DNA of 32,000 bases, taken from the NCBI RefSeq assembly GCF_001598795.1, contig NZ_BCZP01000007.1:90001-122000 (forward strand), read 5' to 3'. Under the pieces are notes generated by a model. The model was not told the origin of the DNA and made no database searches. It saw nothing but the letters and a program-made list of their open reading frames with translations. Position 1 is the first letter of the stretch. Each line of letters begins with the position of its first letter. Of this stretch, positions 11,122-28,686 are shown piece after piece. This DNA comes from Delftia acidovorans NBRC 14950 (GTDB lineage: Bacteria > Pseudomonadota > Gammaproteobacteria > Burkholderiales > Burkholderiaceae_C). The translations under genes were made by a program, and so were the position numbers.

Positions 11122-12291
11122 TCAGGCCTTGAGCAGCTCGCGCGCGATGATGAGTTTTTGCACCTCGGTCGCGCCCTCGTAGATGCGCAGCGCGCGGATC
11201 TCGCGGTACAGCGTCTCCACCGGCATGCCCGAGACCACGCCTGCCCCGCCGAACATCTGCAGCGCGCGGTCGATCACGGCCTGGGCCGATTCAGTGGCCG
11301 TCATCTTGGCCATGGCCGCCTCGCGCGTGGTGCGCGTCTTCTTCACATCGCGCATCCAGGCGGCGCGGTAGGTCAGCAGGGCCGATGCGTCGATGGCCGT
11401 GTCCATGTCGCCCAGCGCGGCCTGGGTCAGTTGCAGGTCGCCCAGGGTCTGGCCGAACATGCGGCGTGACTTGGCGCGTGCCAGGCCTTCATCCAGCGCG
11501 CGGCGCGCAAAGCCCAGTGCGGCGGCGGCCACCGAGGCGCGGAAGATGTCCAGCGTCATCATGGCCAGCTTGAAGCCCTGCCCCGGCTCGCCCAGGCGCT
11601 GCGACACGGGTATGCGGCAGTTGTCGAAGCGGATGGTGGCCAGCGGGTGCGGCGCAATCAGTTCGATGCGCTCGCCGATCGAAAAGCCCGGCGTGTCCGC
11701 ATCGACCACGAAGGCGCTGATGCCGCGCGCCCCGGGTGCCTCGCCCGTGCGGGCGAACACGCAGTAGAAGTCGGCAATGCCGCCGTTGGAGATCCAGGTC
11801 TTGGCACCGTTGAGCACATAGTGGTCGCCTTCGAGCCGCGCCTCGCAGGCCATGGCGGCCACGTCGGAGCCGGCATCGGGCTCGGACAGCGCAAAGGCCG
11901 CAATGGCCTCGCCGCGCGCCACGCGCGGCAGGTAGCGCTGGCGCAGCGCATCCGACCCCATGAGCGATATCGCACCGCTGCCCAGGCCCTGCATGGCAAA
12001 GGCGAAGTCGGCCAGGCCTTCATGGCGGGCCAGGGTCTCGCGCAGGATGCAGACCGCACGCGAGTCCACCTCGGGCAAGGCCCCGCCCCAGGCGCCGCCG
12101 GGGCCAGACGGCACGGCATAGCGCAGCCAGCCGGCCTGGCCCAGGGCCTTCACCAGTTGGCGGCAGGCCGCATCGGCATCGTGGTGGTCCACATCGCCCA
12201 GGGATTGGGCGCACCAGGCGTCGGCCTCATGCGCCAGCGTGCGGTGGGCGTCGTCGAAGAAGGGCCAGTCCAGCCAGGAGGAGTCACGCAT
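11122..12291 (-). CDS. acyl-CoA dehydrogenase
   Basis: ACAD motifs [21 protein letters not shown] and the C-terminal [16 protein letters not shown]. Start at the ATG at 12291 (MRDSSWLD...), preceded by GAAGGAAA. The track's 12306 start is a TTG overlapping the upstream gene. Confidence 0.88.
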
Positions 12292-12292
12292 T

Positions 12293-13150
12293 TCAGTTTC
12301 CTTCAAAGACAGGCTTTTGCTTGGCCACGAAGGCCTCGTAGGCGCGGTGGAAGTCGCGCGTCTGCATGCAGATGGCCTGGGCCTCGGCTTCGGCCTCGAT
12401 GGCCTCGTCCACGCCCATGTTCCATTCCTGGTGCAGCAGCTTCTTGGTTACGCCATGGGCAAAGGTGGGGCCGGCGGCCAGCTGGGCGGCCAGCGCATGG
12501 GCGGCTTCGCCGATCTGCTCGGAGCCGTGCAGGGCATTGAAGAAACCCCAGGCTGCGCCCTCCTCGGCCGTCATGGCGCGGCCCGTGTACAGCAGCTCGG
12601 AGGCGCGGCCCTGGCCGATCATGCGCGGCAGCAGCGTGCAGGCGCCCATGTCGGCACCGGCCAGGCCTACGCGGGTGAAGAGAAACGCCGTGCGCGCGGC
12701 CGGCGTGCCCAGGCGCATGTCGGCCGCCAGCGCGACCATGGCGCCCGCGCCCGCGCAGATGCCGTCCACCGCCGCCACGATGGGCTGCGGGCAGGCGCGC
12801 ATGGCCTTGATCAGATCGCCCGTCATGCGCGTGAAGTCCAGCAGCTCGGGCATGCTCATCTTGGTGAGCGGGCCGATGATCTCGTGCACATCGCCGCCCG
12901 AGCAGAAATTGCCGCCCGCGCCCGTGACCACCACGGCCTTGATGTCGGTGGCATAGACCAGGGCGCGGAACAGGTCGCGCAGCTCGGCGTAGGAGCCGAA
13001 GGTCAGCGGGTTCTTGCGCTCGGGCCGGTTCAGGGTGATGGTGCCGATCTTGCCGTCGGCCGATACCTGCCACACAAAGGTCCTGGCCTCGTAGCCGGCC
13101 AGGGGGCGCTTGTGGTGCTTCATGCTGTGTTCTTCGGGCTGGGTGCTCAT
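12293..13150 (-). CDS. enoyl-CoA hydratase/isomerase (crotonase) family protein
   Basis: [28 protein letters not shown] and [21 protein letters not shown] are crotonase oxyanion-hole signatures. An alternative start at 13123 is possible. Confidence 0.88.
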
Positions 13151-13195
13151 GGTGTCTCCATCAAGAATTCAGAAAACGGGGGGAGTGGACCGGGT

Positions 13196-13999
13196 TCAGC
13201 CGGTCATCACCTCGCCGCCGTCGACGGCAATGGACTGGCCGTTGACCGAGGCGGACGCCGGCAGGGCCAGCCAGGCCACGGTCTCGGCCACTTCCTCGGG
13301 CTGGACCAGGCGGCCCTGCGGGTTGCGTTCGGCCAGCCTGGCGCGGGCCTCATCCGCCGTCATGCCGGTCTTGTCCACGATGTTGGCCACGGCGCCGCGC
13401 ACGATGTCGGTCTCGGTATAGCCGGGGCAGACGGCATTCACCGTCACGCCCTTGCCTGCGGTCTCCAGCGCCAGCGAGCGCGTGAGGCCGATCACGCCAT
13501 GCTTGGCCGCGCAATAGGCGCTGACATAGGCATAGCCGATCAGCCCTGCCGTGCTGGCCACATTGATGATGCGGCCCCAGCGCGCAGCCAGCATGCCCGG
13601 CAGCGCGGCCTGCATGCAGTGGAAGGTGCCTGTGAGATTGACGGCCAGCATCGCCTGCCACAGTGCGGCATCGGTGCGCTCGAACTTCTGGCTGCTGGCC
13701 TGGCCTGCGTTGTTGACCAGCACCTGCACGGGGCCGAAGGCCGCCTCGGCCTGCGCGAAGGCCTGGCGCACCGAGGCCTCGTCGGCAATATCCGCCTGCA
13801 CGGACTGCACCATCTGTGCTGCCTGTGCCGTGCCGCCCAGCTCGCGCACGGCAGCCTCCAGCGCCGCACCATCGCGACCCAGCAGCGTGACCCGCGCGCC
13901 GCGGGCCAGCAGCGCCCGCGCACAGGCCAGGCCTATGCCGCGCGCCCCGCCCGTCACCAGGGCATGGCGCTCTTCAAGAAGATTCAAAGATATGGTCAT
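13196..13999 (-). CDS. SDR-family oxidoreductase (3-hydroxyacyl-CoA dehydrogenase-like)
   Basis: Start at the ATG at 13999 (MTISLNLLEERHALVTGGARGIGLA = TGxxxGIG), then NNAG and YxxxK (YCAAK). The track's 14104 GTG start adds a non-homologous Gly/Ala-rich extension. Confidence 0.88.
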   Translation of the reverse strand: MTISLNLLEERHALVTGGARGIGLACARALLARGARVTLLGRDGAALEAAVRELGGTAQAAQMVQSVQADIADEASVRQAFAQAEAAFGPVQVLVNNAGQASSQKFERTDAALWQAMLAVNLTGTFHCMQAALPGMLAARWGRIINVASTAGLIGYAYVSAYCAAKHGVIGLTRSLALETAGKGVTVNAVCPGYTETDIVRGAVANIVDKTGMTADEARARLAERNPQGRLVQPEEVAETVAWLALPASASVNGQSIAVDGGEVMTG

Positions 14000-14203
14000 T
14001 TCAATCACCCGTGGCGATGCGAGCCACCCGCAACCTATGAAACCGGCGCGCCACACAGCGAGGGACGCCGAGGAAGGGCCTGGGCCGGCCGCGCCGCCCC
14101 GCACCGACGGTATCGCCGGTGGCCCGTATGCCCCCCTCCCGCGAAGCGAGAGAGGGCGCCGTGCACACGGGGGAAGGCGCGAAGCGACTCAGGGGGTGTA
14201 GTT

Positions 14204-16552
14204 TCATTTCGCGTCCAACTGCGCCATGGCGGCGGCGCGTTCGAAGTTGGTTTCCAACTGGCGCTTGCCGGGCTGGTACTGGTTCGGCCAATCCACATCC
14301 TGCGCACCGAGTCTCGCAGCCTCGCGCAGCGTCCAGGCCGCATCTGCCAGGTGCGGGCGCGCCAGCGCGCACAGGTCGGCCCGGCCCGAGGCGATGATGG
14401 CGTTGGCATGGTCGGCCTCGAAGATGGCGCCCACGGCAATGGTCGGTATGCCGGCCTCGTTGCGCACGCGGTCGGCAAACGGCGTCTGGTACATGCGGCC
14501 GTACACCGGCTTCTGGTCGGGGCTGACCTGGCCCGAGGAGCAGTCGATCATGTCCGCGCCCGCCGCCTTGAAGCGGCGTGCGATCTCCACCGCATCGTCG
14601 GGCGTGATGCCGCCTTCCACCCAGTCATGGGCCGAGATGCGCACCGACATGGGCCGGTCCTGCGGCCAGGCTGCGCGCACCGCCTCGAACACCTCCAGCG
14701 GAAAGCGCAGGCGGTTGTCCAGGCTGCCGCCATATTCGTCATCGCGCTGGTTGGTCAGCGGCGAGATGAAGCTGGACAGCAGATAGCCGTGGGCGCAGTG
14801 CAGCTCCAGCCAGTCAAAGCCCGCTGCCGCGGCGCGCCGCGTGGCGGCCACGAAGTCCTCGCGCACGCGGTCCATGTCGGCGCGGGTCATGGCGACGGGC
14901 ACTTGCGAGAGTCCCTCGATATAGGGCAGGGCCGATGCCGACAGCAGCGGCCAGTTGCCCTGCTCCAGCGGATGGTCGATCTGCTGCCAGCCCAGCTGGG
15001 TGGAACCCTTGCGCCCCGCATGCCCCAGCTGCACGCCAATGTGCGCACCGCCCTGCGCGTGCACGAAATCGACAATGCGCCCAAAGGCCTGCGCCTGCTC
15101 GTCGTTCCACAGCCCGGGGCAGCCGGGCGTGATGCGCGCGTCGGGCGAGGTGCAGGTCATCTCCACCATCACCAGGCCCGCGCCGCCCATGGCGCGCGCG
15201 CCCAGGTGCACCAGGTGGAAGTCGCCAGGCACGCCGTCGGTGCAGGAATACATGGCCATGGGCGAGACCACGATGCGGTTCTTCAGCCGCAGGCCGCGCG
15301 CCTGGTAGGGCGTGAGCATGGGCATGGGCGGGCGGCGGCCTTCGGGCACGGTCTCGCCCGCATGCTCGGCAATCCAGCGCTCGAAGCCCTGCAGCCAGGC
15401 GGCATCGCGCAGGCGCAGGTTCTCGTGCGAGATGCGCTGCGAGCGCGTCAGCAGCGAATAGGCGAACTGCTCCGGCTCCAGGCCCGCATAGCGCTCCACG
15501 TTCTCGAACCATTCCGTGGAATTGCGCGCCGCGTTCTGGATCTTGAGCACCTCCACGCTGCGCACATCCTCGTAGTGGCGCAGGCCGGCCTCGATGCCCG
15601 CCGCAGACCGCAGGCTGCGTGCCAGCTCGATCGCATCCTCCAACGCCAGCTTGGTGCCCGAGCCAATCGAGAAATGCGCCGTGTGCGCCGCATCGCCCAT
15701 CAGTACCACGGGCACGCTGCGCGGGCCGCGCGGCGTGTCCAGCGCGTTCCAGTGCACCCAGGTATTGCAGATCACGCGCGGAAAGCGGATCCAGATGGCC
15801 GAGCCGCGCAGGTGCGTGGCATTGCTGACCAGGGCATGGCCGTCCAGCCAGGGGGCGAACAGTTTTTCGCAATAGGCAATGCCCTCTTCCTGGCTCATCT
15901 GCTCTATGCCGGCGGCCTGCCAGGTCTCCTCGGGCGTCTCCACGATGAAGGTGGACATGCCGTCTTCGTAGCGGTAGGCATGGGCCTGGAACCAGCCGTG
16001 CTCGGTCTGCACGAAGGCGAAGGTGAAGGCATCGAACACCTTGGTCGTGCCCAGCCACACGAAGCGGCAGCGGCGCTGGTCGATATCGGGCCGAAAGGTA
16101 TCGGCATAGCGCGTGCGCACCTGGCTGTTGATGCCGTCCGAGGCGATGACCAGGTCGGCGTCGTACTCGCGCGCAATCGCCTGGTCGTCCTGCACGAAGT
16201 TCTCGAACACCAGCTTCACGCCCACGTCCTCGCAGCGCGCCTGCAGGATGTTGAGCAGCTTCTTGCGGCCTATGCCGATGAAGCCATGGCCGCTGCTGCG
16301 CAGGCTGCGGCCCTTGAAGTGGATGTCGATATCGTCCCAGTGGTTGAAGGCGTCACCAATGGTGCGGGCCGATACGGGATCGGCCTCGCGCAGGTTGTCC
16401 ATGGTGGCGTCCGAGAACACCACGCCCCAGCCAAAGGTGTCGTAGGGCCGGTTGCGCTCCACCACCGTGACCTCGTTGGCGGGGTCCTGCAGCTTCATCA
16501 GCAGGCCGAAGTACAGGCCGGCGGGACCTCCACCGATACAGACGATCTTCAT
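14204..16552 (-). CDS. bifunctional flavoprotein: aryl-CoA monooxygenase fused to an Old-Yellow-Enzyme-type reductase (2-aminobenzoyl-CoA monooxygenase/reductase or salicylyl-CoA 5-hydroxylase family)
   Basis: Start [16 protein letters not shown] (FAD GxGxxG), with LVIASDG and [15 protein letters not shown] in the N-terminal hydroxylase half. The C-terminal half [15 protein letters not shown]...HAGRKGS...[20 protein letters not shown] is an FMN OYE TIM barrel. About 782 aa. Confidence 0.85.
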
Positions 16553-16739
16553 ACCGCAAACCCTTTTCTCGCAGGGCGACGGCACAGGACGCCCCAGGTT
16601 CAGAATCCAGGCCCAAGAACTTTAAGCCTGAATAGTTTAGGTTTGAAATATATAGACGAAACGCCGGCACGAACCTAGGGAGAACACGCATGAGCTCCCC
16701 GACAGCCGCTACGATGCCGGATCACCAGGAGGATCTCCC

Positions 16740-18489: not shown

Positions 18490-18984
18490 TTAATCTTGCC
18501 GCTGCGAATTTCCAGCCTCATATTGATATTTAGTAAATTCCTCCAAAACAAAAATATTATCAGAACTTATCAATACACCCATCTCCATCAAATAGCAAGA
18601 TAATTTAGGGTAGAGAATAATACCACATTCATGAGAATTTATATTCCTTTTCTGTGTCATGGTTTTTTTAACAATGGATTCTTTTTCTTTATTTCTTCTT
18701 AAGTCAAGAAGGCTTAACGCATTTAATTCATTATCAACCCCTGACTTGCATAGCATTGTTGCAAACCCCAGGTCGTCATCATAATTTAAGTAACTTAATT
18801 TGCAAAAATCTGGAATATAAATTTCATAATTATTGATATTAACAATAGAATGTTCGTGAATATTATTATTTTTCGATTTAAATTCAATCAACTGAATACA
18901 TCCAGAGATAAAAAACATTGTCGAGAGCAATAAAATTGCTGCATGAAGTATTTTCTTTATCTTTTTAGAGTGAATATTAATCAT
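18490..18984 (-). CDS. putative lipoprotein, candidate immunity protein of orphan cassette B
   Basis: The ATG at 18984 gives MINIHSKKIKKILHAAILLLSTMFFISGC, a lipoprotein signal with an ISGC lipobox. Very AT-rich. It lies 10 nt downstream of the orphan toxin stop, the position of an rhs immunity gene. Confidence 0.65.
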   Translation of the reverse strand: MINIHSKKIKKILHAAILLLSTMFFISGCIQLIEFKSKNNNIHEHSIVNINNYEIYIPDFCKLSYLNYDDDLGFATMLCKSGVDNELNALSLLDLRRNKEKESIVKKTMTQKRNINSHECGIILYPKLSCYLMEMGVLISSDNIFVLEEFTKYQYEAGNSQRQD

Positions 18985-18994
18985 AGCACCAGAT

Positions 18995-19725
18995 TTATTT
19001 ATGGATTGATTTTTCAAGCGCTCCTCCGGTTAGCGTTGCGGTTACCTTCATGCCACTTTTATATGCTTCACGCATAGCTTCAATAGCTTCTTTTTCGGAT
19101 TCCTCCGCTTGACCATTCATTACCTCAAGATCTTGAGCGGATTTAGGACAATTGGGAGGTGTTGGCACAGCAATACATTTGTATAAATCGACTTTTGCCT
19201 GATTGGCTCTTTCCGTCTTTTGATGTGCATCTGCCACATCTTTCCCAAAATTTGCAGATTTCCTTGCTTTATTAGCTGTACTTGCAGCGGCACCAACACC
19301 TCCTTATCCTTGCAACCCCAGTGAATCTATCCACGAGGGCGGATCTGCTGGGTAGTCATAGTGACTAGTGCCTCCATTCCATCCAATCGAATCCTGATTC
19401 ACATAACTCCCCACCACCGGATCGTAATACCGATGACGGTTGTAATACAGCCCCATTTCCCTGTCATGGTGCTCCCCGGCAGCCGGATCGCCTGGTGGAT
19501 GCCCTGCGGGTTGTATTCCTGCAGCACATTGCCCGAGGGAACCAGCTTTGCAGCCCAGGCCACTTGGCCGGTCTGGTCCGTCAGGGCAATTGGTATGTCC
19601 AGATGGTCGCAGTGGTAGTGGAAGATGGTGATGTGGGCGTGCTGTTCTCTTTCCTGTTTTTGCAGTTTAGGCCTGCATGCCGCTGAGCAGGCCTGTGGTG
19701 CTGTCGGCGGCCTCATTGGCTCGGT
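18995..19725 (-). pseudogene. orphan rhs C-terminal fragment B (core 3' end plus ~100-aa toxin tail), disrupted
   Basis: Minus-strand translation matches the main Rhs core end (ADSTT..LL.GMQA / KLQKQEREQHAHITIFHYHCDHL...ALTDQTGQVAWAAKL...NVLQEYNPQGIHQAIRLPG / HHDREMGLYYNRHRYYDPVVGSYVNQD). It is broken by a 1-nt insertion near 19667-19671, a 1-nt deletion near 19474 and an in-frame TAA at 19304-19306. The junction motif is degenerate (PPSWIDSLGL). Confidence 0.8.
19375..19725 (-). repeat. rhs core 3'-end repeat, copy 3 (orphan B, most diverged)
   Basis: Aligns to the same core segment with scattered substitutions and two single-base indels. Confidence 0.85.
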
Positions 19726-20071
19726 ACCTGGAGAGGGCTTTGTGCGTCTGCGATGGAGTTGGGTTACTGTTCCATCCTGACCATACCCACCCGCGCAACT
19801 TCGCTGTTTCGGACATATCCTCAGCCTATGGAAGCTCTGTATAAATCAAACTTCCGAAAAGCAGGCTGTTAAAAATCAATGACTTTCAATGTCTACAAAA
19901 TAGAAATCGTGCTTTGTGCAGAGGTTCCCTAAGTAAATACCCAGCCTAGCCCCAAAGCACAGTCAATTAATTAGAATAAATACCCTACTTGCGTTAATAG
20001 CAATAAATACACCGAATTCAAAGATATAGATAATCCGCAACAAACCAATCAATGATCTCCTAGCAAGAATT

Positions 20072-20650
20072 CTATTGATAATCAATTTCTACTAAGCAGA
20101 TGTAAGATTGCGATTTATATGGAGTTCTCATGGTCATCCTTGCATGTGTAGGCTTACTTGAGAAAATAGCATTTCTCCCATCAATATCCCTGGAATAGAG
20201 AATTATTTCATCTTTGTTTAAAAGCATATGAATTTGAACATTTTCCAAATTCCTCGATATTTTCTGCCCAATCTTTTTATCAGGGCTATTTATATAAATC
20301 GTTCCACTATTTTTTATTTCTTCCAACAAAACCGATAGCGAATTTTCTTGCCTCCCCTTTGATTCATACTCATTTCTATGTCCGACACCAAATGCATATT
20401 TTACAGGAAGAAAATTACCATTCTTTATTAACCCAGGTTCAACCATCCAAGAATAGTTGATTTCATTTTTTTCATTACTTCTATCATTAATAATCCATAT
20501 TTTTTGATCTTTATCAATGATTTGAAAACTGGCTACAAATTTCTTTGAATCTACGCCAACCAAACATTCTGGCTCTCGATTTTCAATATCTTTGGCGTAC
20601 GATGAAGAAAAATTCAAACAAATAGCAAATACATAAAATAAATATTTCAT
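20072..20650 (-). CDS. secreted (Sec signal) protein, candidate immunity protein of orphan cassette A
   Basis: MKYLFYVFAICLNFSSSYA-KD... is a classical signal peptide. 192 aa, very AT-rich. ATGA overlap with the stop of the orphan toxin ORF (20647-20650). Confidence 0.7.
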   Translation of the reverse strand: MKYLFYVFAICLNFSSSYAKDIENREPECLVGVDSKKFVASFQIIDKDQKIWIINDRSNEKNEINYSWMVEPGLIKNGNFLPVKYAFGVGHRNEYESKGRQENSLSVLLEEIKNSGTIYINSPDKKIGQKISRNLENVQIHMLLNKDEIILYSRDIDGRNAIFSSKPTHARMTMRTPYKSQSYICLVEIDYQ

Positions 20651-21087
20651 CGTCGAGTGCCTCTTGTTCTAGTCCTGATTTTTTGCATCATTTCCAATAT
20701 ATCGTCCGTATCTGCTGTAGGAGCGGTGCCTGGCCCGGTGGGGTCGCTCTTCAGTCGGGATTTATTGCATTTTTCGCCAACTGGCAAAGGCATTGATTTA
20801 GGAGTGGAAGGAATACTATCGTGGCTTCTTGTCAGTGGATTTGAGGGATAGGTGAAGAAATTTACCCCACCCATCAACCCGATCGGATCCTGATTCACAT
20901 AAATCCCCACCACCGGATCGTAATACCGATGCCGGTTGTAATACAGCCCCGTTTCCCTGTCATGGTGCTGCCCCGGCAGCCGGATCGCCTGGTGCAGGCC
21001 CTGCGGGTTGTACTCCTGCAGCACATTGCCCCAGGGGTCCAGCTTTACGGCCCAGGCCACCTGGCCGGTCTGGTCCGTCAGGGCCAT
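20647..21087 (-). CDS. orphan rhs C-terminal fragment A (core 3' end plus ~65-aa tail); open only from an internal Met
   Basis: MALTDQTGQVAWAVKLDPWGNVLQEYNPQGLHQAIRLPGQHHDRETGLYYNRHRYYDPVVGIYVNQDPIGLMGG is near-identical to the main Rhs core end. Homology continues upstream to about 21250 in another frame (SAQAILGEQAEGATRLLSGMQAKLQEQERQQRIAI) because of a 2-nt deletion near 21117. An ATG at 21277 abuts the stop of the upstream immunity gene. Confidence 0.7.
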   Translation of the reverse strand: MALTDQTGQVAWAVKLDPWGNVLQEYNPQGLHQAIRLPGQHHDRETGLYYNRHRYYDPVVGIYVNQDPIGLMGGVNFFTYPSNPLTRSHDSIPSTPKSMPLPVGEKCNKSRLKSDPTGPGTAPTADTDDILEMMQKIRTRTRGTRR

Positions 21088-21250
21088 TGGCGTGCCCAGT
21101 GGGTCGCAGTGGTAGTGGGATGGCGATGCGCTGTTGCCGCTCCTGTTCCTGCAGTTTTGCCTGCATGCCGCTCAGTAGGCGTGTGGCCCCCTCGGCCTGT
21201 TCGCCTAGGATCGCCTGGGCGCTGGGCTGCAGGCTGTGCGCATGGCGCTC
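20866..21250 (-). repeat. rhs core 3'-end repeat, copy 2 (orphan A)
   Basis: Direct visual alignment to 22213-22600. Long identical runs such as ccggatcgtaataccgatgccggttgtaatacagccccgtttccctgtcatggtgctgccccggcagccggatcgcctggtgcaggccctgcgggttgtactcctgcagcacattgccccaggggtccagctt. Confidence 0.9.
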
Positions 21251-21277
21251 AGCATAAAATCGCCCCATCTGGCACAT

Positions 21278-21652
21278 TCAAATTGGTTTATTTTTTATTT
21301 CAAATATGACAAAAATCATAGACGAAATGATGCCAGCAAAAAAACCAAATATCAGATAATAAAAATCGAGAAGATCAATTGCCAAGGATAAATTGAAAAA
21401 TAATTTCTTAATTGTGATGACTGCAAGTGCTCCAATAGTTGCAGAGATACAGAAATAGAAAAATATGCCGTATTTGTTTTTTAAATGCCCAAGAAATAAT
21501 TGAAACAAAAAATTAAGAGGCAGCGAAATTAGAAAAACGAATAAGAAAAAATAAACATAAAGCGATTTATAATCTTTATCCGTCATTAACCCCGTAAAGA
21601 GAAATCCAATAATTACAGATGAAACGATGCTTGGCTGTATTAACTTAATCAT
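21278..21652 (-). CDS. small 4-TM integral membrane protein, cognate immunity candidate for the main Rhs toxin
   Basis: 124 aa with four hydrophobic helices (SIVSSVIIGFLFTGL, LYVYFFLFVFLISLPLNFLF, IFFYFCISATIGALAVITI, FYYLIFGFFAGIISSMIFVIF). ATGA overlap with the rhs stop (21649-21652). Extremely AT-rich. Confidence 0.75.
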   Translation of the reverse strand: MIKLIQPSIVSSVIIGFLFTGLMTDKDYKSLYVYFFLFVFLISLPLNFLFQLFLGHLKNKYGIFFYFCISATIGALAVITIKKLFFNLSLAIDLLDFYYLIFGFFAGIISSMIFVIFEIKNKPI

Positions 21653-24600
21653 TTGCAGCTTTCCGCATATTCGAAGACATTTTTATCAACTTGGCCCCAA
21701 AGTGTGTCTGCAAGTGCACTGTTTATTCCACCCATAGGACCAACACCTTCCCCGAACGTATGCACTGTCACCTCAGTTGCGCTTTCTGAGACCCAACGGC
21801 GTACTATTCCTGGGTAGAGTAGGTGCGAATTTTCCGTAACGTTAACGACCATTGTACGATCTGAATTAACTACATGGCTCACGGGGCCCACAGGAATTGC
21901 GAAACCGCGCTGGCCGTTTTGTATAGGCTCCCCTTTTGCACCTGGAGCTGGATAACGCATTAGTCCTTCGGATACGTTTTTAAGAGTGCAGCCACTTGTA
22001 CTCTTCTTGCAAGAATTCCTCGTGTTGTAACTGTGAAAGTCGTTGTTGCCTTCATCAAAAAGCATTACTCCGTTACTGTCTTCGCCTAGCAATCCGGGGT
22101 AGCTCTTTCTATTGTTGCTTAAATAGCCCCGTTGCGCCATTGTTCCTGGCTCAAGACCAAGCGGGTCGGCCAAATTAACCGGCGAATTTCTAACATATCC
22201 GTAGGGGTTAGTCCCACCCATCAAACCAATCGGATCCTGATTGATATAACTCCCAACCACCGGATCGTAATACCGATGCCGGTTGTAATACAGCCCCGTT
22301 TCCCTGTCATGGTGCTGCCCCGGCAGCCGGATCGCCTGGTGCAGGCCCTGCGGGTTGTACTCCTGCAGCACATTGCCCCAGGGGTCCAGCTTCGCGGCCC
22401 AGGCCACTTGGCCGGTCTGGTCCGTCAGCGCCATGGGCGTGCCCAGGTGGTCGCAGTGGTAGTGGTGGATGGCGATGCGGGCGTGCTGTTCTTTTTCCTG
22501 TTCCTGCAGCTTTGCCTGCATGCCGTTGAGTAGGCGTGTAGTGCTGTCTGCCTGTTCGCCCAGCATGGCCTGGGCACTGGGCGGCAGGCCATGGTCCAGG
22601 GTATGGCGCAGGTGGCGGGCGGCGTCTTGTTGCATGTCGCGCGGCATGGCGCTGAGCATGGTTTGCATGAGGGCCAGGGCCGGCGTGTGGTTGGGGTCGT
22701 CCTGGTCGGGCAAGCCTGCGGTGATGGCCTGCACCAGCAGGTGGGGCTCGCTTTGCGGGTCGCCGCTGGCCGTGGTGCTCAGGCGCACCAGGGGGGTGAA
22801 GCTGCCCGGTTCGTAGATGGTGTGCTCTATGTGGCGCGCGTCGTCGCCATGCTGCAGGCGTTCGGTGTGGATGAGGCGGTCGCCGTCCCAGCCGTAGTAG
22901 TGGGTGTGGGTGGATTCTGTGGAGTCCGCGCTTTCGACCTGCTGCTTGAGCCTGCGGCCCAGGGCGTCGTAGGTGTAGCGGCTGTGGTGGCGCAGTTGCT
23001 CGGCGTTGCCCTGGATCTGGCTGCTGCGCACCGCTATGAGCTGGTGGGCTCCGTCGTAGTGCAGTTGCTGCTGGCTGTGGTCTGCCTGCATTTGCGCGAT
23101 GCGGTTGCCGCAGGGGTCGTAGCGCCAGACGCAGTCTTCGGTGAAGCCGATGCGGTTGTCTTCCCAGCGCTGCACGGGGCCTTGCCGCTGGCCTGCAAGG
23201 TGGGCCAGGCCCATGAGGTTGAAGTCGGTGTGCCGCCAGTGGGCGTGGACCTGGGCGGCCCAGTTGTCCTGGGTGTTCGTCTGGCACGGTGCACCGGGTG
23301 CTGGCAGGCGGTTGCCTGCAGGGTCGATCTGCCAGCGGGTGGTGGTCTGGGGGTCCTGGCTGTCGGTGGCCGCTCTGAGGCGCCCGGCGCTGTCGTAGCC
23401 GTAGCGCAGCAGTTGTGCGGCCTGGCCCGGGGCGCCGGCCTGTTCGATGGCAACGAGCTGGCCCAGGCTGTCGCAGTGGTAGCGACGGCCGAGGATCTGG
23501 CCTATGAGGGGCTGGACCAGGTGGTCCCTGCCTTCCGTGCTTTGCAGGCCCGTGGTGCCAAGGGCCGTGAGGCGGCCCAGGCTGTCCCATTGGCGTTGCA
23601 CCTGCAGGGGGTTGTGTGCGTCTGCTGCAGAGGTGGGTGAGTGCAGGCTGCGGCGGACTTCGCGGTGCAGGTTGTCGCGCTCGAAGTCGATGAGGCTGGC
23701 TCCGTTGAGCTGCAGTCCGTGCACATGGCCTGAGCCGTAGGTGAGCCAGGCGATCTCCCCCAGGCCTTGCAGCTGGCTGTGCTGGCGTGCGCCCAGCGCG
23801 TCCAGGCTGTGGGCGATGCGGTGTTCGTATTCGATCTGCTCTGCGCCCCCGTTGCCGCCCCCGTCCTTGCCTGGGCGGTACAGCTGCTGCACTTCTGCGG
23901 TGATGCGGCCCAGGGCGTCGCGCTCCAGTGCTATGCGGCTTTGCAGTTGGATGGTGTTCTCTGCGGTGTTCTCGCCGGTGTGCTGCCATACGCTGGCCGC
24001 CGTGAGGCGCCCGGCGGCATCCCATTCGTAGCGGTGGGTTTGTGCGGGCGCATGGGGCGTGGCGGGCAGCTGGCGTTCGGCGAGGCGCCCGCCTTCGTCC
24101 CAGCGGTAGTGGCTGCTGCTTTGCTGTGCGGCGTTGCCGTCCGTGGCTTCGAGGAGCTGGCCTGCCGCGTCCCAGCGGTAGCGCTGCAGCCGTTGGTCAA
24201 ACCCTTCTTCCTGCACGAGCCGGTCCAGTGCGTCCCAGGCAAAGCGGCTTTGCGCTCCGTTCTCGTTGACGAGGCGCAGGAGGCGGCCGGCGCTGTCGTA
24301 TTCGAAGGCCAGGGTGAGGCCGCCATGTGTTCGCTGGACCAGCCTGCCCCAGAGGTCGTAACGCAGGTGGATGCTGGGGTCGGCGGTCTGGGTTTCGCTG
24401 GAGGTGCCGGCAGGCTGGGCCGGATCGATGCGCGTGAGGTGGCCTGCACTGTCGTAGTGGTAGCGCTCGATCTGGCCGTTGGGCAGTTCGCTGGCCACGA
24501 TGCGGCCCTGGCCATCGCGCTGGTGGCGTTGGCGCTGGCCCAGGGCGTTGTCCACTTCGATGAGCGCGCCCCAGCGGTCGTAGTGGTAGTGCGTGCTGTG

Positions 24601-26250
24601 GCCCGAGCAGTCGGTGTAGCTGAGCAGTTGGCCCGCGTCGCTCCAGGCCAGCTGTTTGCTGCCACCCTGGGCGTCTTCGATGCGCCGGGGGCTGTCGCAG
24701 GTGAGCGGCGCTTCCTGGGGGTCGGGGTAGTGGTAGCGCTCGGTGCTGCCATCGGCCTGGGTGATCTGGATGAGACGGCCCCAGGCGTCGTATTGGTAGC
24801 CGGTGGTGGCGCCTGCCGTGTCGGTCGCGCTGAGCAGGCGGCCGGTGGCTTCGTCGTGTTCCTGTTGGGTGCTGCGCCCGTCGGGCAGTTGCACGCCGAG
24901 GAGCCGGCCCTGGCCGTCGCGCCTGAGGTGGACGCTGCGCCCCAGCGGGTCGGTGCGCGAAGCCAGCCGGCCGAAGCTGTCGTAGGCCTGCAGCCAGCGG
25001 CTGCCATCGGCCTTGTGGTGGGCAACGAGGCGCGACAGGCCCGCCTCGCCTTCGAAGTAGTAGGTCTCGATGCGATCCAGGCTGTCGCTGACGCGGGTGG
25101 CGGCGCGCGGCTGGCCGTCGGGGTCCGGGGGCTGGGCGAGGTAGTCGAAGCGGTAGGACAGGCCTTCCTGGTTGCTGTGCTCGATGACGCGGGCACCGGG
25201 CTGGGCGCTCTCGTAGCGGTAGCGGTGCCAGGGGCCGCTGGCATGGCGGTGGGCGCTGATGCGGTGGTGGTCCCATTCGAATTCGCGCACGAGCTGGCCT
25301 GCGCGGTCGTGGACGGTGATGAGGTCGCCTGCGTTGCTGTAGCCGTAGCGCACGAGGGCGATGGGGGTGGACAGGGGATGCAACGGGTCCTGCACCAGAT
25401 CCACGCCTGTGACCCGCCAGCCGTCGTCGGTTCCCCACAAACCCAGCGCATCCCTGCCGCCATGGATGCGCTGGTGCAGCAGCCGGTAGCGGCGGCCTGT
25501 GCCGTCGCTCAGCGAGACCAGGCGCCCTGCGGGCACAGCCTCTTTGCTGGCACTGTGGCCGGCCTCGGGCGTGGTGCCGTCGCTGTAGTGGTAGAGCTGG
25601 CGGCGCCCGAAGCGGTCGATCTGGGCCATGAGGAGCCAGGGACCGTCGACAGGTCCACCGGGCGCAGGACCAAAGCCCCAGAGTGTGTCGCCATCGCCGC
25701 TGACCGCGAGGATGGCTTGCGGGTTGCGCACCAGCGCCTGCTCCACATGGCTCCAGCGTGGGTTCGCCGCCCAGGGGGCGGTACCGCCGTCCGGCTCCGT
25801 GCTGCCGCCGCGCAGCAGCCAGATGTCTTCGCTGGCACTGTGCAGCTGGCCGCCCGGCACCAGAGGCTGGTCGAAGGTGATGACGCGGCCGCTGGCATCC
25901 AGCAGCAAGGTGGCCTCTTCCTGCAGGCGGATGCTGAGCTCCTGCAGCAGGTGCCAGCCATGGCCCAGCAGGCCGCAGGCAGCGCCGTGCTCGGGGTTGA
26001 CGTAGCTGCTGTACTGGCGCTGCCAGGCCACAGGCAGCGCAGCCGATGGCAGGGCGAAGTCCAGGTCTTGTGCGCCCAACAGGACCTTGGCGCCCAGCTG
26101 GGGGTTGACGGGGGAACTGACGGTGATGCCACCTGGGCAGACGGAGCAGGCCAGGCCCCCCTGGCTGCCGATGAGCACGGTGAGCGAGCCGGTGACGATC
26201 TTGCCCTTGACGACGCTGTCGGTGATACGGGCTGCGGGTTGGCCACTCAT
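21649..26250 (-). CDS. rhs: T6SS PAAR-domain Rhs effector (1533 aa) with an unrecognised C-terminal toxin domain
   Basis: N-terminus MSGQPAARITDSV...LIGS is a PAAR motif. Dozens of YD repeats (YRYDLWGRL, FEYDSAGRL, YQYDAWGRL, YHYDRWGAL, YGYDSAGRL). Core end HHYHCDHLGTP...DPWGNV...LPGQHHDRETGLYYNRHRYYDPVVGSYINQDPIG, then the PxxxxDPxGL demarcation PVNLADPLGL (about 22153-22182). The 167-aa tail is at 21652-22152. AGGAG lies 10 nt upstream of the ATG. Confidence 0.95.
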   Translation of the reverse strand: MSGQPAARITDSVVKGKIVTGSLTVLIGSQGGLACSVCPGGITVSSPVNPQLGAKVLLGAQDLDFALPSAALPVAWQRQYSSYVNPEHGAACGLLGHGWHLLQELSIRLQEEATLLLDASGRVITFDQPLVPGGQLHSASEDIWLLRGGSTEPDGGTAPWAANPRWSHVEQALVRNPQAILAVSGDGDTLWGFGPAPGGPVDGPWLLMAQIDRFGRRQLYHYSDGTTPEAGHSASKEAVPAGRLVSLSDGTGRRYRLLHQRIHGGRDALGLWGTDDGWRVTGVDLVQDPLHPLSTPIALVRYGYSNAGDLITVHDRAGQLVREFEWDHHRISAHRHASGPWHRYRYESAQPGARVIEHSNQEGLSYRFDYLAQPPDPDGQPRAATRVSDSLDRIETYYFEGEAGLSRLVAHHKADGSRWLQAYDSFGRLASRTDPLGRSVHLRRDGQGRLLGVQLPDGRSTQQEHDEATGRLLSATDTAGATTGYQYDAWGRLIQITQADGSTERYHYPDPQEAPLTCDSPRRIEDAQGGSKQLAWSDAGQLLSYTDCSGHSTHYHYDRWGALIEVDNALGQRQRHQRDGQGRIVASELPNGQIERYHYDSAGHLTRIDPAQPAGTSSETQTADPSIHLRYDLWGRLVQRTHGGLTLAFEYDSAGRLLRLVNENGAQSRFAWDALDRLVQEEGFDQRLQRYRWDAAGQLLEATDGNAAQQSSSHYRWDEGGRLAERQLPATPHAPAQTHRYEWDAAGRLTAASVWQHTGENTAENTIQLQSRIALERDALGRITAEVQQLYRPGKDGGGNGGAEQIEYEHRIAHSLDALGARQHSQLQGLGEIAWLTYGSGHVHGLQLNGASLIDFERDNLHREVRRSLHSPTSAADAHNPLQVQRQWDSLGRLTALGTTGLQSTEGRDHLVQPLIGQILGRRYHCDSLGQLVAIEQAGAPGQAAQLLRYGYDSAGRLRAATDSQDPQTTTRWQIDPAGNRLPAPGAPCQTNTQDNWAAQVHAHWRHTDFNLMGLAHLAGQRQGPVQRWEDNRIGFTEDCVWRYDPCGNRIAQMQADHSQQQLHYDGAHQLIAVRSSQIQGNAEQLRHHSRYTYDALGRRLKQQVESADSTESTHTHYYGWDGDRLIHTERLQHGDDARHIEHTIYEPGSFTPLVRLSTTASGDPQSEPHLLVQAITAGLPDQDDPNHTPALALMQTMLSAMPRDMQQDAARHLRHTLDHGLPPSAQAMLGEQADSTTRLLNGMQAKLQEQEKEQHARIAIHHYHCDHLGTPMALTDQTGQVAWAAKLDPWGNVLQEYNPQGLHQAIRLPGQHHDRETGLYYNRHRYYDPVVGSYINQDPIGLMGGTNPYGYVRNSPVNLADPLGLEPGTMAQRGYLSNNRKSYPGLLGEDSNGVMLFDEGNNDFHSYNTRNSCKKSTSGCTLKNVSEGLMRYPAPGAKGEPIQNGQRGFAIPVGPVSHVVNSDRTMVVNVTENSHLLYPGIVRRWVSESATEVTVHTFGEGVGPMGGINSALADTLWGQVDKNVFEYAESCK
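22213..22600 (-). repeat. rhs core 3'-end repeat, copy 1 (within the main rhs gene)
   Basis: About 390 bp encoding PSAQAMLGEQADSTTRLLNGMQAKLQEQ...YYDPVVGSYINQDPIGLMGG. It is repeated with high identity at 20866-21250 and, more diverged, at about 19375-19725. Confidence 0.9.
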
Positions 26251-26328: not shown

Positions 26329-28686
26329 TCAGCAGTTGAGCCGGTCCGTGGGCGAGAGAATCTGGATGTCGCCGGGCGTGATGCGGATGGTGCTTTCGCC
26401 GCAGGTCAGCAGGATTTCCTGCTGGGCTTCGAGCCGGATCTTGGCGGCGTTGAGCTCAATGCTTTGCCCATCCATGGTGAGCTGGGAGGCCTTGCCGCCT
26501 CCACCGCTGCCGCTGTCACCACCGCCACCGCCACCGCCACCGGGCGCCGTGATGTTCATGGCCATGCCGCCTCCCGCGCCACCACCGCTGCCGCCACCAC
26601 CTCCGCCACCACCGCCCACGGTCAGCGAGTACTGCGAGCCCACTTCCGTGCTTTGCTTGCTGCCGACCTTGACCTGGCGCTCCTGCCCCACGGTGAGGTT
26701 CTGGCTCATGCCGACCGTGGTCTGCATGGCCACACCGATGTTCTCCATGTAGTTGACGCCGATGTTCATCATCTTCATCACACCCACGTTCTGCATGTAG
26801 GCCATGCCTATGGTCTGGGTCTTGAGCAGGCCGACCGTGACGTGCCAGTTCTGGCCTATCTTGTCGGTCTCGGTCTTGCCGATGGTCTTGCTGCGGTTCT
26901 TGCCGATGGAGATGTTCTCGTCGATGCCGACGTCTTCATTGCGGTTGTCGCCGATGCTGATCTTCTCGTTGTGGTCCACCCGCTCCGTGCGGTTGTTGTG
27001 CACGGTGATGGTCTCGTCGCGGTCCACGGTCTCCGTGCGGTCGCGGTGGATGACGTTGGTTTCGTCACGGTCCACCGTCTTGCGCCGGTCATTGCCCACC
27101 CATTTGTCCTCGTCGTTCTCGACTTCGGTGAGCTGGTCCTTTTGCGCGTGCAGCCACAGCTGTTCGGCGCCGGCCTTGTCCTCGAAGCGGATGGCGTTGG
27201 CGTCGCCCGGGCCGTTCTTCATGCCCGCGCCTGCGGCACCGCCCTTGCTCGATCTGGTCTTGATGCCCGATTGCGTGGCGTTGGCCGGCAGCGCCCAGGG
27301 CGGCATGTTGGCCGCGTTGTAGACGCAGCCCGTGACGATGGGGTAGTCCGGGTCGCCGTTGAGGAAGTCCACCACCACCTCGTGCCCTATGCGCGGGATG
27401 GAGATGGCGCCAAAGCCCGGGCCGGCCCAGTTGGTGGCCACGCGGATCCAGCAGCTGGAGTTCTCGTTCATGCCGCCCAGCCGGTCCCAGTGGAACTGCA
27501 CCTTGATGCGGCCGTATTCGTCGGTCCAGATTTCTTCTCCGGCCGGGCCCACGACGACGGCAGTCTGCGGGCCGGTGGTGCGCGGCTTGGGCGTGGTGCG
27601 CGCGGGCGTGTAGGCAAGACTCGTGGGCTGAGCCTGCAACTCGTAGCGCTGGAAGGAGCCGTCTTCCGCGGCGCTGCCCTTGGCGCCCGGAGCCACGGCA
27701 CTGACGCGGGGGTTCTCCTTCAAGTGGTAGCTCAGGCCCGTGATCAGGTACTGCTGGTTCTGGTCGCCGCGCGGGTAGTTGTAGAGGCTGAAGGTGTAGC
27801 CCGTGGCCAACGCCCGGTGGCAGGACTGGCCCCGCACCCGGCTTTGGCCCGTGAGGCTTTCCTTCAGGCGCACGCGGATGTAGTCCTCACCGTCGCTCAG
27901 CTGGGTGTAGCCGCCCGGCCATTCGTAGATTTCGTGGCCGTCATGGGCGTGGCCCGGTGGGTCGCGCCGCAGGTGGGTGAGGTCGGCCCGGGGTTTCTTG
28001 AAGTCGTAGTCGTCGCTGTAATGGCGGCCCGATTTGATTTCCTGCTCCAGCTGCCAGGCGTGGATGTTTTCCTGATCGCCTGCGGCGGCTTTTTCCGGGG
28101 GATAAAAGGGAATGGAGGCGCCCCCGGGCAATACGCTGTGCGAGGCAATGATGTCGTCGCACAGCACCAGGGTGTGCTGGCCTGAGGCATGCTCGAAGAA
28201 GTAGTAAATGCCTTCGTGCTCCATCAATCGCGATACGAAGTCGCAATCGCTTTCGTTGTATTGAACGCAGTAGTCCCAGCTGCGATACGCACGCGTGAGT
28301 TTCTTTTGCAGGGGATGGCCATAGACGCCCAATACCTGCTCGATGATGTCGGGCACGGTCTGGTTCTGGAAGATGCGAAAGTCGCTCTTGCGCGTGGCCA
28401 GCCACAGCCAGGGGCTCAGGCGCGCCTTGTAGGCGTAGTGGCGGTGGTCCTGGCCCTGCATGCCGAAGCGGGTGACGATGCCGTCAATGAAGCGCCTGCC
28501 GCCGCCCTGGGTTTCTATTTCTATGGTGGCGTTTTTGCCCAATAGGGCCTTGGGATCGATGCTTTCGCTTTCGCTGAGCATTTCCACATCGAGGCTGAAG
28601 AGCTGGCTGATGTTTTCCTGGCCGCGCAATTCACGGAAATGCAGCTGCTCGCCCAATGGCGTGTGTATGGTGACTCGGCGTGTCAT
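26329..28686 (-). CDS. vgrG: T6SS spike protein VgrG
   Basis: gp27-like N-terminus (FRIFQNQTVPDIIEQVL, WDYCVQYNESDCDFVSRLMEHEGIYYFFEH). gp5-like OB region (WAGPGFGAISIPRIGHEVVVDFLNGDPDYPIVTGCVYN). Beta-helix octapeptide-like repeats (DRDETNVIHRDRTETVDRDETITVHNNRTERVDHNEKISIGDNRNEDVGIDENISIG). Gly-rich linker and short C-terminal domain. Confidence 0.95.
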   Translation of the reverse strand: MTRRVTIHTPLGEQLHFRELRGQENISQLFSLDVEMLSESESIDPKALLGKNATIEIETQGGGRRFIDGIVTRFGMQGQDHRHYAYKARLSPWLWLATRKSDFRIFQNQTVPDIIEQVLGVYGHPLQKKLTRAYRSWDYCVQYNESDCDFVSRLMEHEGIYYFFEHASGQHTLVLCDDIIASHSVLPGGASIPFYPPEKAAAGDQENIHAWQLEQEIKSGRHYSDDYDFKKPRADLTHLRRDPPGHAHDGHEIYEWPGGYTQLSDGEDYIRVRLKESLTGQSRVRGQSCHRALATGYTFSLYNYPRGDQNQQYLITGLSYHLKENPRVSAVAPGAKGSAAEDGSFQRYELQAQPTSLAYTPARTTPKPRTTGPQTAVVVGPAGEEIWTDEYGRIKVQFHWDRLGGMNENSSCWIRVATNWAGPGFGAISIPRIGHEVVVDFLNGDPDYPIVTGCVYNAANMPPWALPANATQSGIKTRSSKGGAAGAGMKNGPGDANAIRFEDKAGAEQLWLHAQKDQLTEVENDEDKWVGNDRRKTVDRDETNVIHRDRTETVDRDETITVHNNRTERVDHNEKISIGDNRNEDVGIDENISIGKNRSKTIGKTETDKIGQNWHVTVGLLKTQTIGMAYMQNVGVMKMMNIGVNYMENIGVAMQTTVGMSQNLTVGQERQVKVGSKQSTEVGSQYSLTVGGGGGGGGGSGGGAGGGMAMNITAPGGGGGGGGDSGSGGGGKASQLTMDGQSIELNAAKIRLEAQQEILLTCGESTIRITPGDIQILSPTDRLNC
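26494..26620 (-). repeat. GGN-codon low-complexity tract encoding the VgrG poly-Gly linker
   Basis: The plus strand reads gcc/acc-rich (accgccaccgccaccgccacc, ccgccaccacctccgccaccaccgcc). It encodes GGGGGGGGGSGGGAGGG and GGGGGGGGDSGSGGGG flanking MAMNITAP. Confidence 0.8.

Follow-up and report, generated by a model that had tools for sequence, protein, structure and literature searches.

The DNA analysed here is a stretch of 32,000 nucleotides (nt) from Delftia acidovorans NBRC 14950 (contig NZ_BCZP01000007.1, positions 90,001 to 122,000), which we term the window and by whose own numbering all positions are given. On its minus strand are three successive genes: the first codes for a VgrG spike protein; the second, at a spacing of ~80 nt, for a large Rhs protein; and the third, which overlaps the end of the Rhs gene, for a small membrane protein (Table 1). 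The variable C-terminal tail of the Rhs protein and the product of the third gene are the subject of this report, and they very probably constitute a toxin and its immunity protein.

The VgrG protein matches the Phage_GPD (E=1.4e-109), Gp5_trimer_C (E=2.4e-50), Phage_base_V and DUF2345 models of Pfam and, going by these matches, it marks the locus as an effector cluster of a type VI secretion system (T6SS). In the Rhs protein the matches are to DUF6531 (E=2.5e-12, residues 46-126), RHS_repeat (E=2.2e-66, in 13 stretches) and RHS (E=5.2e-19, residues 1261-1297). It thereby displays the features by which toxins of the Rhs/YD type are recognized: the RHS repeats and core, a PxxxxDPxGL boundary with a variable tip, and a link to the T6SS spike through VgrG. 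By analogy with other Rhs proteins, the boundary motif PVNLADPLGL is the expected point of self-cleavage. At this motif the guanine-plus-cytosine (GC) content drops from 0.68 (Rhs core) to 0.48 (tail), and it reaches 0.28 in the candidate immunity gene; such a gradient is the typical signature of a horizontally exchanged Rhs tip cassette.

Table 1. Principal features of the effector locus, numbered by position in the window
Feature	Coordinates	Strand	Remarks
VgrG spike gene, 785 amino acids (aa)	26329..28686	-	Pfam matches; directly upstream of the Rhs gene
Rhs effector, 1533 aa	21649..26250	-	short N-terminus with PAAR motif, DUF6531, RHS-repeat shell, RHS core, C-terminal toxin
PVNLADPLGL demarcation motif	22153..22182	-	Rhs residues 1357-1366; end of the conserved Rhs core
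C-terminal toxin domain, 167 aa	21652..22152	-	residues 1367-1533 of the Rhs protein, beginning with a linker of ~16 residues
Folded START/helix-grip-like core (predicted)	21658..22104	-	tail residues ~17-165; AlphaFold2 and Foldseek
Candidate immunity gene, 124 aa	21278..21652	-	ATGA overlap with the Rhs gene; four-helix membrane protein
Two degenerate orphan Rhs-tip/immunity cassettes	18490..21277	-	RHS core matches on 20647..21087; GC 0.29-0.51

The toxin tail and its predicted fold

A preliminary description of the locus, prepared from the letters of the sequence, had reported an unrecognised, soluble-looking tail of 167 residues with several Cys and His and with no pore-forming signature, and each of these observations is borne out. 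The tail is exactly 167 residues long. It is hydrophilic, with a grand average of hydropathy (GRAVY) of -0.49, has three Cys and four His, and its highest 19-residue Kyte-Doolittle mean is 0.67, which leaves no transmembrane (TM) segment. Neither the tail nor the small downstream protein has a match in Pfam, NCBIfam or PADLOC at E<=1 or among the sequences of the PDB at E<=10, and a profile search of the PDB with the tail family found nothing. The characterised enzymatic toxins (HNH/GHH/SHH nucleases, deaminases, ADP-ribosyltransferases, NADases and the Ntox/Tox families of Pfam) yielded neither a profile match nor a shared catalytic motif. When 54 diverse homologues were compared with Pfam and NCBIfam, we obtained scattered single-member matches at E 0.01-0.1, none of them to a toxin or START-clan family; among those in Pfam at E<=0.1 there is no toxin family, with three stray single-member matches to non-toxin families at E~0.08-0.1.

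Structure prediction points to a fold for this otherwise unmatched tail. The AlphaFold2 model, built with a 54-sequence alignment (A1), has a mean predicted local distance difference test score (pLDDT) of 93.3 and a predicted template-modelling score (pTM) of 0.88, with the first 10 residues at a pLDDT of 54. The order of elements in the model is as follows: a small N-terminal hairpin; a long strand (39-49); a helix (57-66); a long loop bearing the motif RYPAPG; five strands; and a 25-residue C-terminal helix (141-165). Foldseek recovers 83 PDB matches at E<=1e-3, nearly the whole set being helix-grip proteins of the SRPBCC/START type, with a probability of 1.0: the top match is the receptor PYL1 (3nmn_C; E 4.8e-6, template-modelling score 0.57), and further ones are PYR1 receptors, the AHSA1-like proteins 3q63 and 1xfs, and the bacterial START-like domain 3put, at identities of 7-13%. 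The tip is thus very likely, on the strength of the model, to possess a START-like helix-grip fold. The preliminary description had named a confident match to a characterised toxin family as an outcome that would refute it; what emerged instead is a match to the START/SRPBCC fold.

Conservation was counted over 125 domains of the family, which have a mean column identity of ~30%. Over 90% of them retain the following: H40 (122 of 125), Y42 (119), P70 (124), N104 (124), T106 (119), H110 (123), R119 (115), the GxGxG loop formed by G134 (124), G136 (124) and G138 (119), N144 (122) and W152 (116); G115 is likewise kept in 124. On three strands the conserved residues are spaced at i, i+2 (H40/Y42, N104/T106 and G115/V117/R119), so that each set faces a single side of the sheet, while N144, L147, W152, V155 and V159 recur with an i+3/4 pattern along one face of the C-terminal helix. 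This strand and helix periodicity suggests that the conserved residues of the modelled domain line a pocket between the sheet and the helix. The GxGxG loop is situated at the N-terminal end of the long C-terminal helix, a position from which it could bind an anion or phosphate. The invariance of the polar residues looks more like that of a reaction centre than like the loosely conserved cavities of passive lipid carriers.

Two of the cysteines, Cys48 and Cys55, covary: among the 125 domains both are present in 104, both are absent in 15 and only one is found in 6. The pattern would fit a dispensable structural disulfide, and such a putative bond in turn implies an oxidising compartment. An alternative use of these residues, in a C2H2 zinc site made up of H40, C48, C55 and H110, was considered and rejected: a single extended strand holds H40 and C48 at a distance of eight residues, and 15 of the 125 members do without both cysteines.

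The family and its adjacent membrane proteins

Exhaustive HMMER searches recover homologues of the tail in 405 clusters (defined at 50% identity) at E<=1e-3, 93 at E<=1e-10 and 11 at E<=1e-30. A word-indexed protein search, when started from the single sequence, gave only 7 close relatives, from Delftia and Paracidovorax, and 14 with a profile; hence, the family is visible only through the exhaustive search. In a crude motif census the domain forms the C-terminus of an Rhs/YD protein in at least 38 of the 150 listed matches. Giants of 2300-3600 aa (SpvB-FG-GAP-RHS and Ig/cadherin-RHS) also end in it, and it is further found on a VgrG(gp5)-DUF6531-RHS fusion in Halomonas, in a CdiA/DUF637 context, and in short proteins, some with N-terminal signal peptides. 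As judged from these homologues, the tail belongs to a large, unnamed family of polymorphic-toxin tips that is neither rare nor specific to Delftia. The differences between the toxin genes of two related loci (L004 and L003) fall at third codon positions in 103 of 163 cases, a bias that indicates a toxin under purifying selection.

A few matches stand apart from these architectures. An apparent run of nine tandem domain copies (P0138) is a spurious match to an InlB B-repeat protein and was discarded. A plasmid tblastn search gave one weak match, to a hypothetical protein in Fulvitalea. A 434-aa protein (P0181) has a START-like domain at ~112-195 followed by a Hint/intein-type domain at 219-254, an organization unlike that of the Rhs tips; its Hint/intein matches in Pfam are sub-threshold (best E 8.6e-7, below the gathering score).

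The preliminary description had further noted a 124-aa four-helix membrane protein coupled to the Rhs gene through an ATGA overlap, and this too stands. The open reading frame (ORF) begins at the ATG of the ATGA that overlaps the Rhs stop codon, and its product has a GRAVY of 1.23 and four hydrophobic segments. AlphaFold2 predicts helices at 5-22, 29-61, 63-86 and 94-121, at low confidence (pLDDT 68); in this low-confidence model the interhelical loops are only ~6-8 residues long. The protein has 27 close homologues, some of them from named Delftia acidovorans. The two other candidate immunity ORFs of the window are hydrophilic, having either no TM segment or a single N-terminal hydrophobic one; a membrane partner is therefore not a general trait of the locus.

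The combination of a soluble toxin with a polytopic partner, to which the preliminary description had drawn attention, recurs far beyond Delftia. A pattern scan of 185,579 species genomes with a narrower alignment (A2) yielded 16 loci, from Delftia, Paracidovorax/Acidovorax, Endobugula, Shewanella, Alteromonas, Halomonas, Halioglobus, a metagenome-assembled genome (MAG) of the Pseudoalteromonadaceae and two other MAGs. In all 16 the ORF overlapping or abutting the toxin stop codon codes for a polytopic membrane protein of 96-127 aa: those of the Comamonadaceae have 124-127 aa and four TM segments, those of the gammaproteobacteria 96-101 aa and three. Frameshifts divide this ORF at two of the loci (L001 and L005). 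A further seven members, less closely related at 38-42% identity to the Delftia tip, have adjacent partners of 114-153 aa at gaps of up to ~60 nt, all with 3-4 predicted TM segments and a GRAVY of 0.95-1.27: P0052 (114 aa), P0061 (128 aa), P0059 (124 aa), P0070 (131 aa), P0053 (134 aa), P0069 (129 aa, an uncalled ORF) and P0067 (153 aa). Altogether, the next gene specifies a protein of 96-153 aa with 3-4 TM segments in 23 of the 25 related loci examined. The pairing of toxin and membrane protein is family-wide and no local accident.

The evolutionary behaviour of the two genes differs. A comparison of L004 with L003 gives 71 synonymous and 44 non-synonymous codon differences for the toxin, and 14 and 99, respectively, for the partner. 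A suspected homology of the four-TM partners of Comamonadaceae with the three-TM partners of gammaproteobacteria, and with those of other groups, was rejected at an hhalign probability of ~1%.

Some individual loci merit a separate mention. Delftia acidovorans MMO-42 carries two copies of the cassette (L001, 629-1504; L002, 4001-4875), which share 96-97% toxin identity and are differently damaged: the membrane gene of L001 is broken up into two ORFs of 81 aa each; that of L002 is intact at 124 aa and follows a frameshifted toxin with a stop at 4381, which would agree with a toxin that decays while immunity is kept. Two MAGs labelled Desulfuromonas and Sphaerochaeta (L013 and L014) have identical frameshifted toxin fragments and identical 101-aa partners in bins from unrelated phyla, which probably reflects mis-binning of the same organism or mobile element. 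On the chromosome of Alteromonas sp. A079 (L029/L015) the toxin forms the tip of a 2329-aa SpvB-FG-GAP-RHS protein resembling Tc BC components and has a 100-aa partner with three TM segments; the cassette is flanked by a TrwC relaxase/helicase gene and a GmrSD-like gene, which suggests an integrative mobile element.

Surroundings of the pair in Delftia

The ends of the two large genes that face each other upstream of the tip have features of their own. The first 45 residues of the Rhs protein (26116-26250), the only ~45 aa that precede DUF6531, contain a literal 'PAAR' motif (MSGQPAARITD...) and a CxxC; the PAAR model of Pfam has no match on this N-terminus at E<=1, and the segment may represent a reduced PAAR-like cap. 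The C-terminal region of the VgrG protein (26329-26700) has long glycine runs (GGGGGGGGGSGGGAGGG ... GGGGGGGGDSGSGGGG) ahead of its DUF2345-like end. Such a low-complexity linker, immediately before the Rhs gene, is unusual.

Downstream of the immunity gene are the two orphan cassettes, which are context and lie outside the START toxin pair. The first (20072-21277, minus strand) is a frameshifted fragment of an Rhs C-terminus that starts directly past the immunity stop codon: a 146-aa ORF (20647..21087) matches the RHS core, the homology extends upstream in another frame from ~21277, the PxxxxDPxGL motif is degenerate, the tip has only ~60 aa and the GC content is 0.32-0.45. It is overlapped by an ORF for a hydrophilic 192-aa protein (20072..20650) with a signal-peptide-like start (MKYLFYVFAICLNFSSSYA). 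The second cassette (18490-19716, minus strand) is more broken, with Rhs core fragments in several frames (19304..19456 and 19399..19716) and an 80-aa ORF (18995..19237). Its 175-aa ORF (18490..19017; GC 0.29) codes for a protein with a single N-terminal hydrophobic segment that ends in a lipobox-like FFISGC. No family matches were found in this cassette.

Just past the cassette array is a 793-aa ORF (14204-16585, minus strand), together with a long antisense ORF (12239..16678) that is an artefact of the sort typical of high-GC DNA. From its N-terminal GGGPAG motif, the 793-aa product looks like an FAD-monooxygenase fused to a reductase of the Old-Yellow-Enzyme type; it appears to be unrelated to the toxin pair.

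Mode of action and relation to known systems

The known roles of START/helix-grip domains are those of lipid carrier, hormone receptor and polyketide cyclase, and the cytosolic START protein Rv0910 sequesters acyl-AcpM. The reading that we favour, and consider somewhat more likely than not, is that of a genuine T6SS Rhs effector and immunity pair with a START-fold tip, probably an enzyme, which hits a membrane lipid or other hydrophobic target and against which the membrane protein confers immunity. Its parts differ in strength: a membrane or hydrophobic target has somewhat better than an even chance; an enzymatic tip is about evenly balanced; and action on the periplasmic side falls slightly short of even. 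The preliminary description had proposed a new mechanism on an envelope target; we infer likewise that the tip may act in such a manner, and the modelled START/SRPBCC fold fits an envelope or membrane target.

The sequence of events would be as follows. The VgrG-associated Rhs protein would be fired into a neighbouring cell, where, if it behaves as other Rhs proteins do, the 167-aa tip would be freed at PVNLADPLGL. The tip would fold as a helix-grip domain with a predicted pocket lined by H40, Y42, N104, T106, H110, R119, N144 and W152. It might then dock on the cytoplasmic membrane, and bind and most likely chemically alter a hydrophobic membrane component. As substrates one may think of polyprenyl-phosphate carriers or lipid II, of quinones and of phospholipids, all of them guesses guided by the ligands of START-type pockets and by what limits the cell. 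In the producer, the small membrane protein of 3-4 helices is likely, given the conserved gene pairing, to protect by capturing the toxin at the membrane or inside it. A T6SS delivers few molecules, which favours catalysis; it is on account of this low dose, the fold and the enzyme-like invariance of the polar residues that an enzyme is favoured over a passive lipid binder. The periplasmic face is weakly favoured on account of the Cys48/Cys55 pair, the relatives with signal peptides and the apparently exported partner of one divergent relative (P0187). A more specific form of the proposal is tentative and, we think, somewhat unlikely: the tip would be the founding START-fold interbacterial enzyme toxin, extracting a membrane lipid into its pocket and inactivating it by means of the His/His/Arg/Asn/Tyr set, with the immunity protein occluding the docking face or shielding the substrate rather than capping the active site.

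Several observations weigh against the favoured reading. The call of the fold comes from one predicted model and one search method (Foldseek), and the likeness is at the level of the superfamily, with template-modelling scores of 0.5-0.57, a root-mean-square deviation of 4-5 Å and ~10% identity; models of the START clan (START, Bet_v_1, Polyketide_cyc/2, AHSA1 and the COQ10 type) match neither the tail nor any of the 54 homologues. Some relatives are stand-alone secreted proteins and may not be toxins. One of these secreted-type proteins (P0113) has nothing downstream, and the divergent P0187, with degenerate motifs, precedes a gene for a soluble protein of 176 aa whose start resembles a signal peptide. 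The topology of the Delftia partner, read from its sequence, is ambiguous, with 5 versus 4 Lys/Arg on the two sides. Partners of different subfamilies have no detectable homology (BLASTP E=0.62; hhalign ~1% probability). Even between Delftia and Paracidovorax/Acidovorax (L003/L004/L006/L007), the toxins are 75-77% identical while the membrane partners share only 23-28% identity, and such fast divergence is odd for a protein that specifically binds the toxin. This would leave two options: a very small surface of contact, or protection through a general membrane-embedded property in place of tight and specific capping.

The divergence of the partners also bears on whether the downstream protein confers immunity at all. 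It could be an export or accessory protein or a hitch-hiker, with the true immunity located elsewhere or not needed, as the rate at which partners outpace the toxin and the lack of homology across subfamilies might indicate. We regard this as highly improbable: the position and coupling of the gene are those of Rhs immunity genes (ATGA here; overlap or tight abutment at 16 loci), the pairing holds across Rhs, SpvB-RHS and CdiA-type carriers and several phyla, and there is no other candidate ORF between the toxin and the next orphan cassette. If the protein is an immunity protein, its integral-membrane nature calls to mind the pore-forming colicins and Tse5/Tsi5, of which membrane immunity is the established hallmark. 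The tip might accordingly permeabilise membranes by unfolding or oligomerising in the bilayer, in the way of Tse5-CT, the ionophore CdiA-CT(EC93) and pore-forming colicins, with the immunity protein binding the inserted form. It has, however, no hydrophobic or amphipathic hairpin (the 19-residue maximum and GRAVY are those given above), it is modelled at very high confidence as a compact alpha/beta domain, mostly beta with two amphipathic helices, and its invariant residues are polar and of a pocket type, not membrane-facing; a pore-former is very improbable.

Other alternatives accept the fold and differ in what it does. Plant PYR/PYL receptors clamp PP2C phosphatases by means of gate and latch loops, and the best structural matches of the tip are closed-lid PYL1/PYR1 complexes; by eye, R-Y-P-A-P-G and H110-L-L-x-P-G are placed in loops of a similar kind. 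By this token the tip could be a stoichiometric inhibitor, binding and blocking an essential protein of the membrane or periplasm, whether or not a small ligand takes part. This is quite unlikely, given that the Foldseek likeness is at the level of the fold only (11-13% identity), that the few molecules per T6SS delivery favour catalysis and that the invariant His/His/Arg/Asn/Tyr set resembles a reaction centre. A cytoplasmic mode of action, the sequestration or modification of a hydrophobic metabolite, soluble or bound to a carrier, such as acyl-ACP (ACP, acyl carrier protein), a cofactor or a quinone precursor, would assign the membrane protein the role of tethering the toxin at the inner face. 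The START fold does occur in cytosolic binders and enzymes, Rv0910 and PasT were once labelled toxins (PMC13525633), and with its topology ambiguous the loops of the immunity protein could face the cytoplasm. Nevertheless, the covarying Cys pair and the signal-peptide-bearing relatives better fit an oxidising compartment, loops as short as those of the model offer a poor surface with which to capture a soluble 18-kDa protein off the membrane, and the polytopic partner in 23 of 25 loci is left unexplained, so that we consider the cytoplasmic scenario unlikely.

Among Rhs tips with membrane immunity, the nearest system is the Tse5-CT/Tsi5 pair of Pseudomonas aeruginosa. Both are T6SS Rhs pairs and have in common the VgrG-linked Rhs shell, the PxxxxDPxGL motif, the low-GC tip and an overlapping downstream gene, which in Delftia is that of the candidate immunity protein, and Tsi5, like the Delftia partner, is integral to the membrane. 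As a pore former, Tse5-CT is hydrophobic and inserts into the membrane, whereas the Delftia tip is hydrophilic and predicted to be a compact START-like domain with an enzyme-like polar site. Colicin M/Cmi and TelC/TipC are possible functional analogues in that the toxins are soluble enzymes acting only from outside the cytoplasm on lipid II, a lipid embedded in the membrane, and have immunity at or outside the membrane (PMC12419801 and established knowledge). The folds of colicin M and TelC are, however, unrelated to the tip, with no sequence or fold match found, and Cmi is membrane-anchored and TipC periplasmic, neither being polytopic, unlike the Delftia partner.

The members of the START/SRPBCC superfamily (Bet v 1-like proteins, including PYR/PYL, AHSA1-like proteins, polyketide cyclases and Coq10/PasT) share the predicted fold of an antiparallel sheet around a long C-terminal helix. 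The Delftia tip differs from them in several respects: no sequence-profile relationship is detectable; a single helix, not a helix pair, follows the first core strand, and there is an extra N-terminal hairpin; it has motifs of its own (HxY, CX6C, PAPG, NxT, HxLxPGxVxR and GxGxG); and its place is at the tip of secreted polymorphic toxins. In the literature, a 'START-domain-like helix-grip' toxin tip is mentioned in one sentence, for the 'Cystatin' polymorphic toxins (Burroughs, Nicastro and Aravind, eLife 2025, PMC12419801), and the supplement of that paper lists related Cystatin architectures from Bacteroidota with immunity partners of the lipoprotein type. The likeness to these is one of description: the Cystatin toxins have lipoprotein and Cystatin-like carriers and lipoprotein-type immunity, while the Delftia family has Rhs, VgrG-Rhs, SpvB-RHS and CdiA-type carriers and polytopic membrane proteins as immunity candidates. 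A 2026 review of bacterial START proteins (PMC13525633) records no experimentally studied secreted START toxin and gives three links to toxins: PasT/RatA, now regarded as a Coq10-like carrier; Rv0910, which is contested; and the START-like tip of the Cystatin toxins. PasT/RatA of E. coli and Rv0910 of M. tuberculosis share the START fold and are reported to inhibit growth on over-expression (PMC13525633), but they are cytosolic proteins of a housekeeping type whose toxin status has been withdrawn or questioned, and they lack both a secretion carrier and a membrane immunity protein, nor do their sequences resemble that of the tip. No domain of this kind is mentioned in the large survey of polymorphic toxins by Zhang et al. 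(2012), and a literature search for START, SRPBCC, Bet v 1 or helix-grip in conjunction with T6SS, Rhs, contact-dependent inhibition (CDI)/CdiA or polymorphic toxins found no characterised example.

The pair thus unites a familiar delivery and immunity architecture with an uncharacterised toxin family, whose fold is one not yet studied as an interbacterial toxin. The consistent pairing with very small polytopic partners of no detectable sequence similarity to one another also raises a general question: how a protein that is almost wholly within the membrane could neutralise a soluble toxin. Should the domain prove toxic, the contact-dependent weapons of bacteria would gain a new fold and, probably, a chemistry and a target that are new as well. 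With at least 405 clusters distributed over Rhs, VgrG-Rhs, SpvB-RHS and CdiA-type systems in many lineages, the characterisation of a single member would annotate hundreds of effectors.

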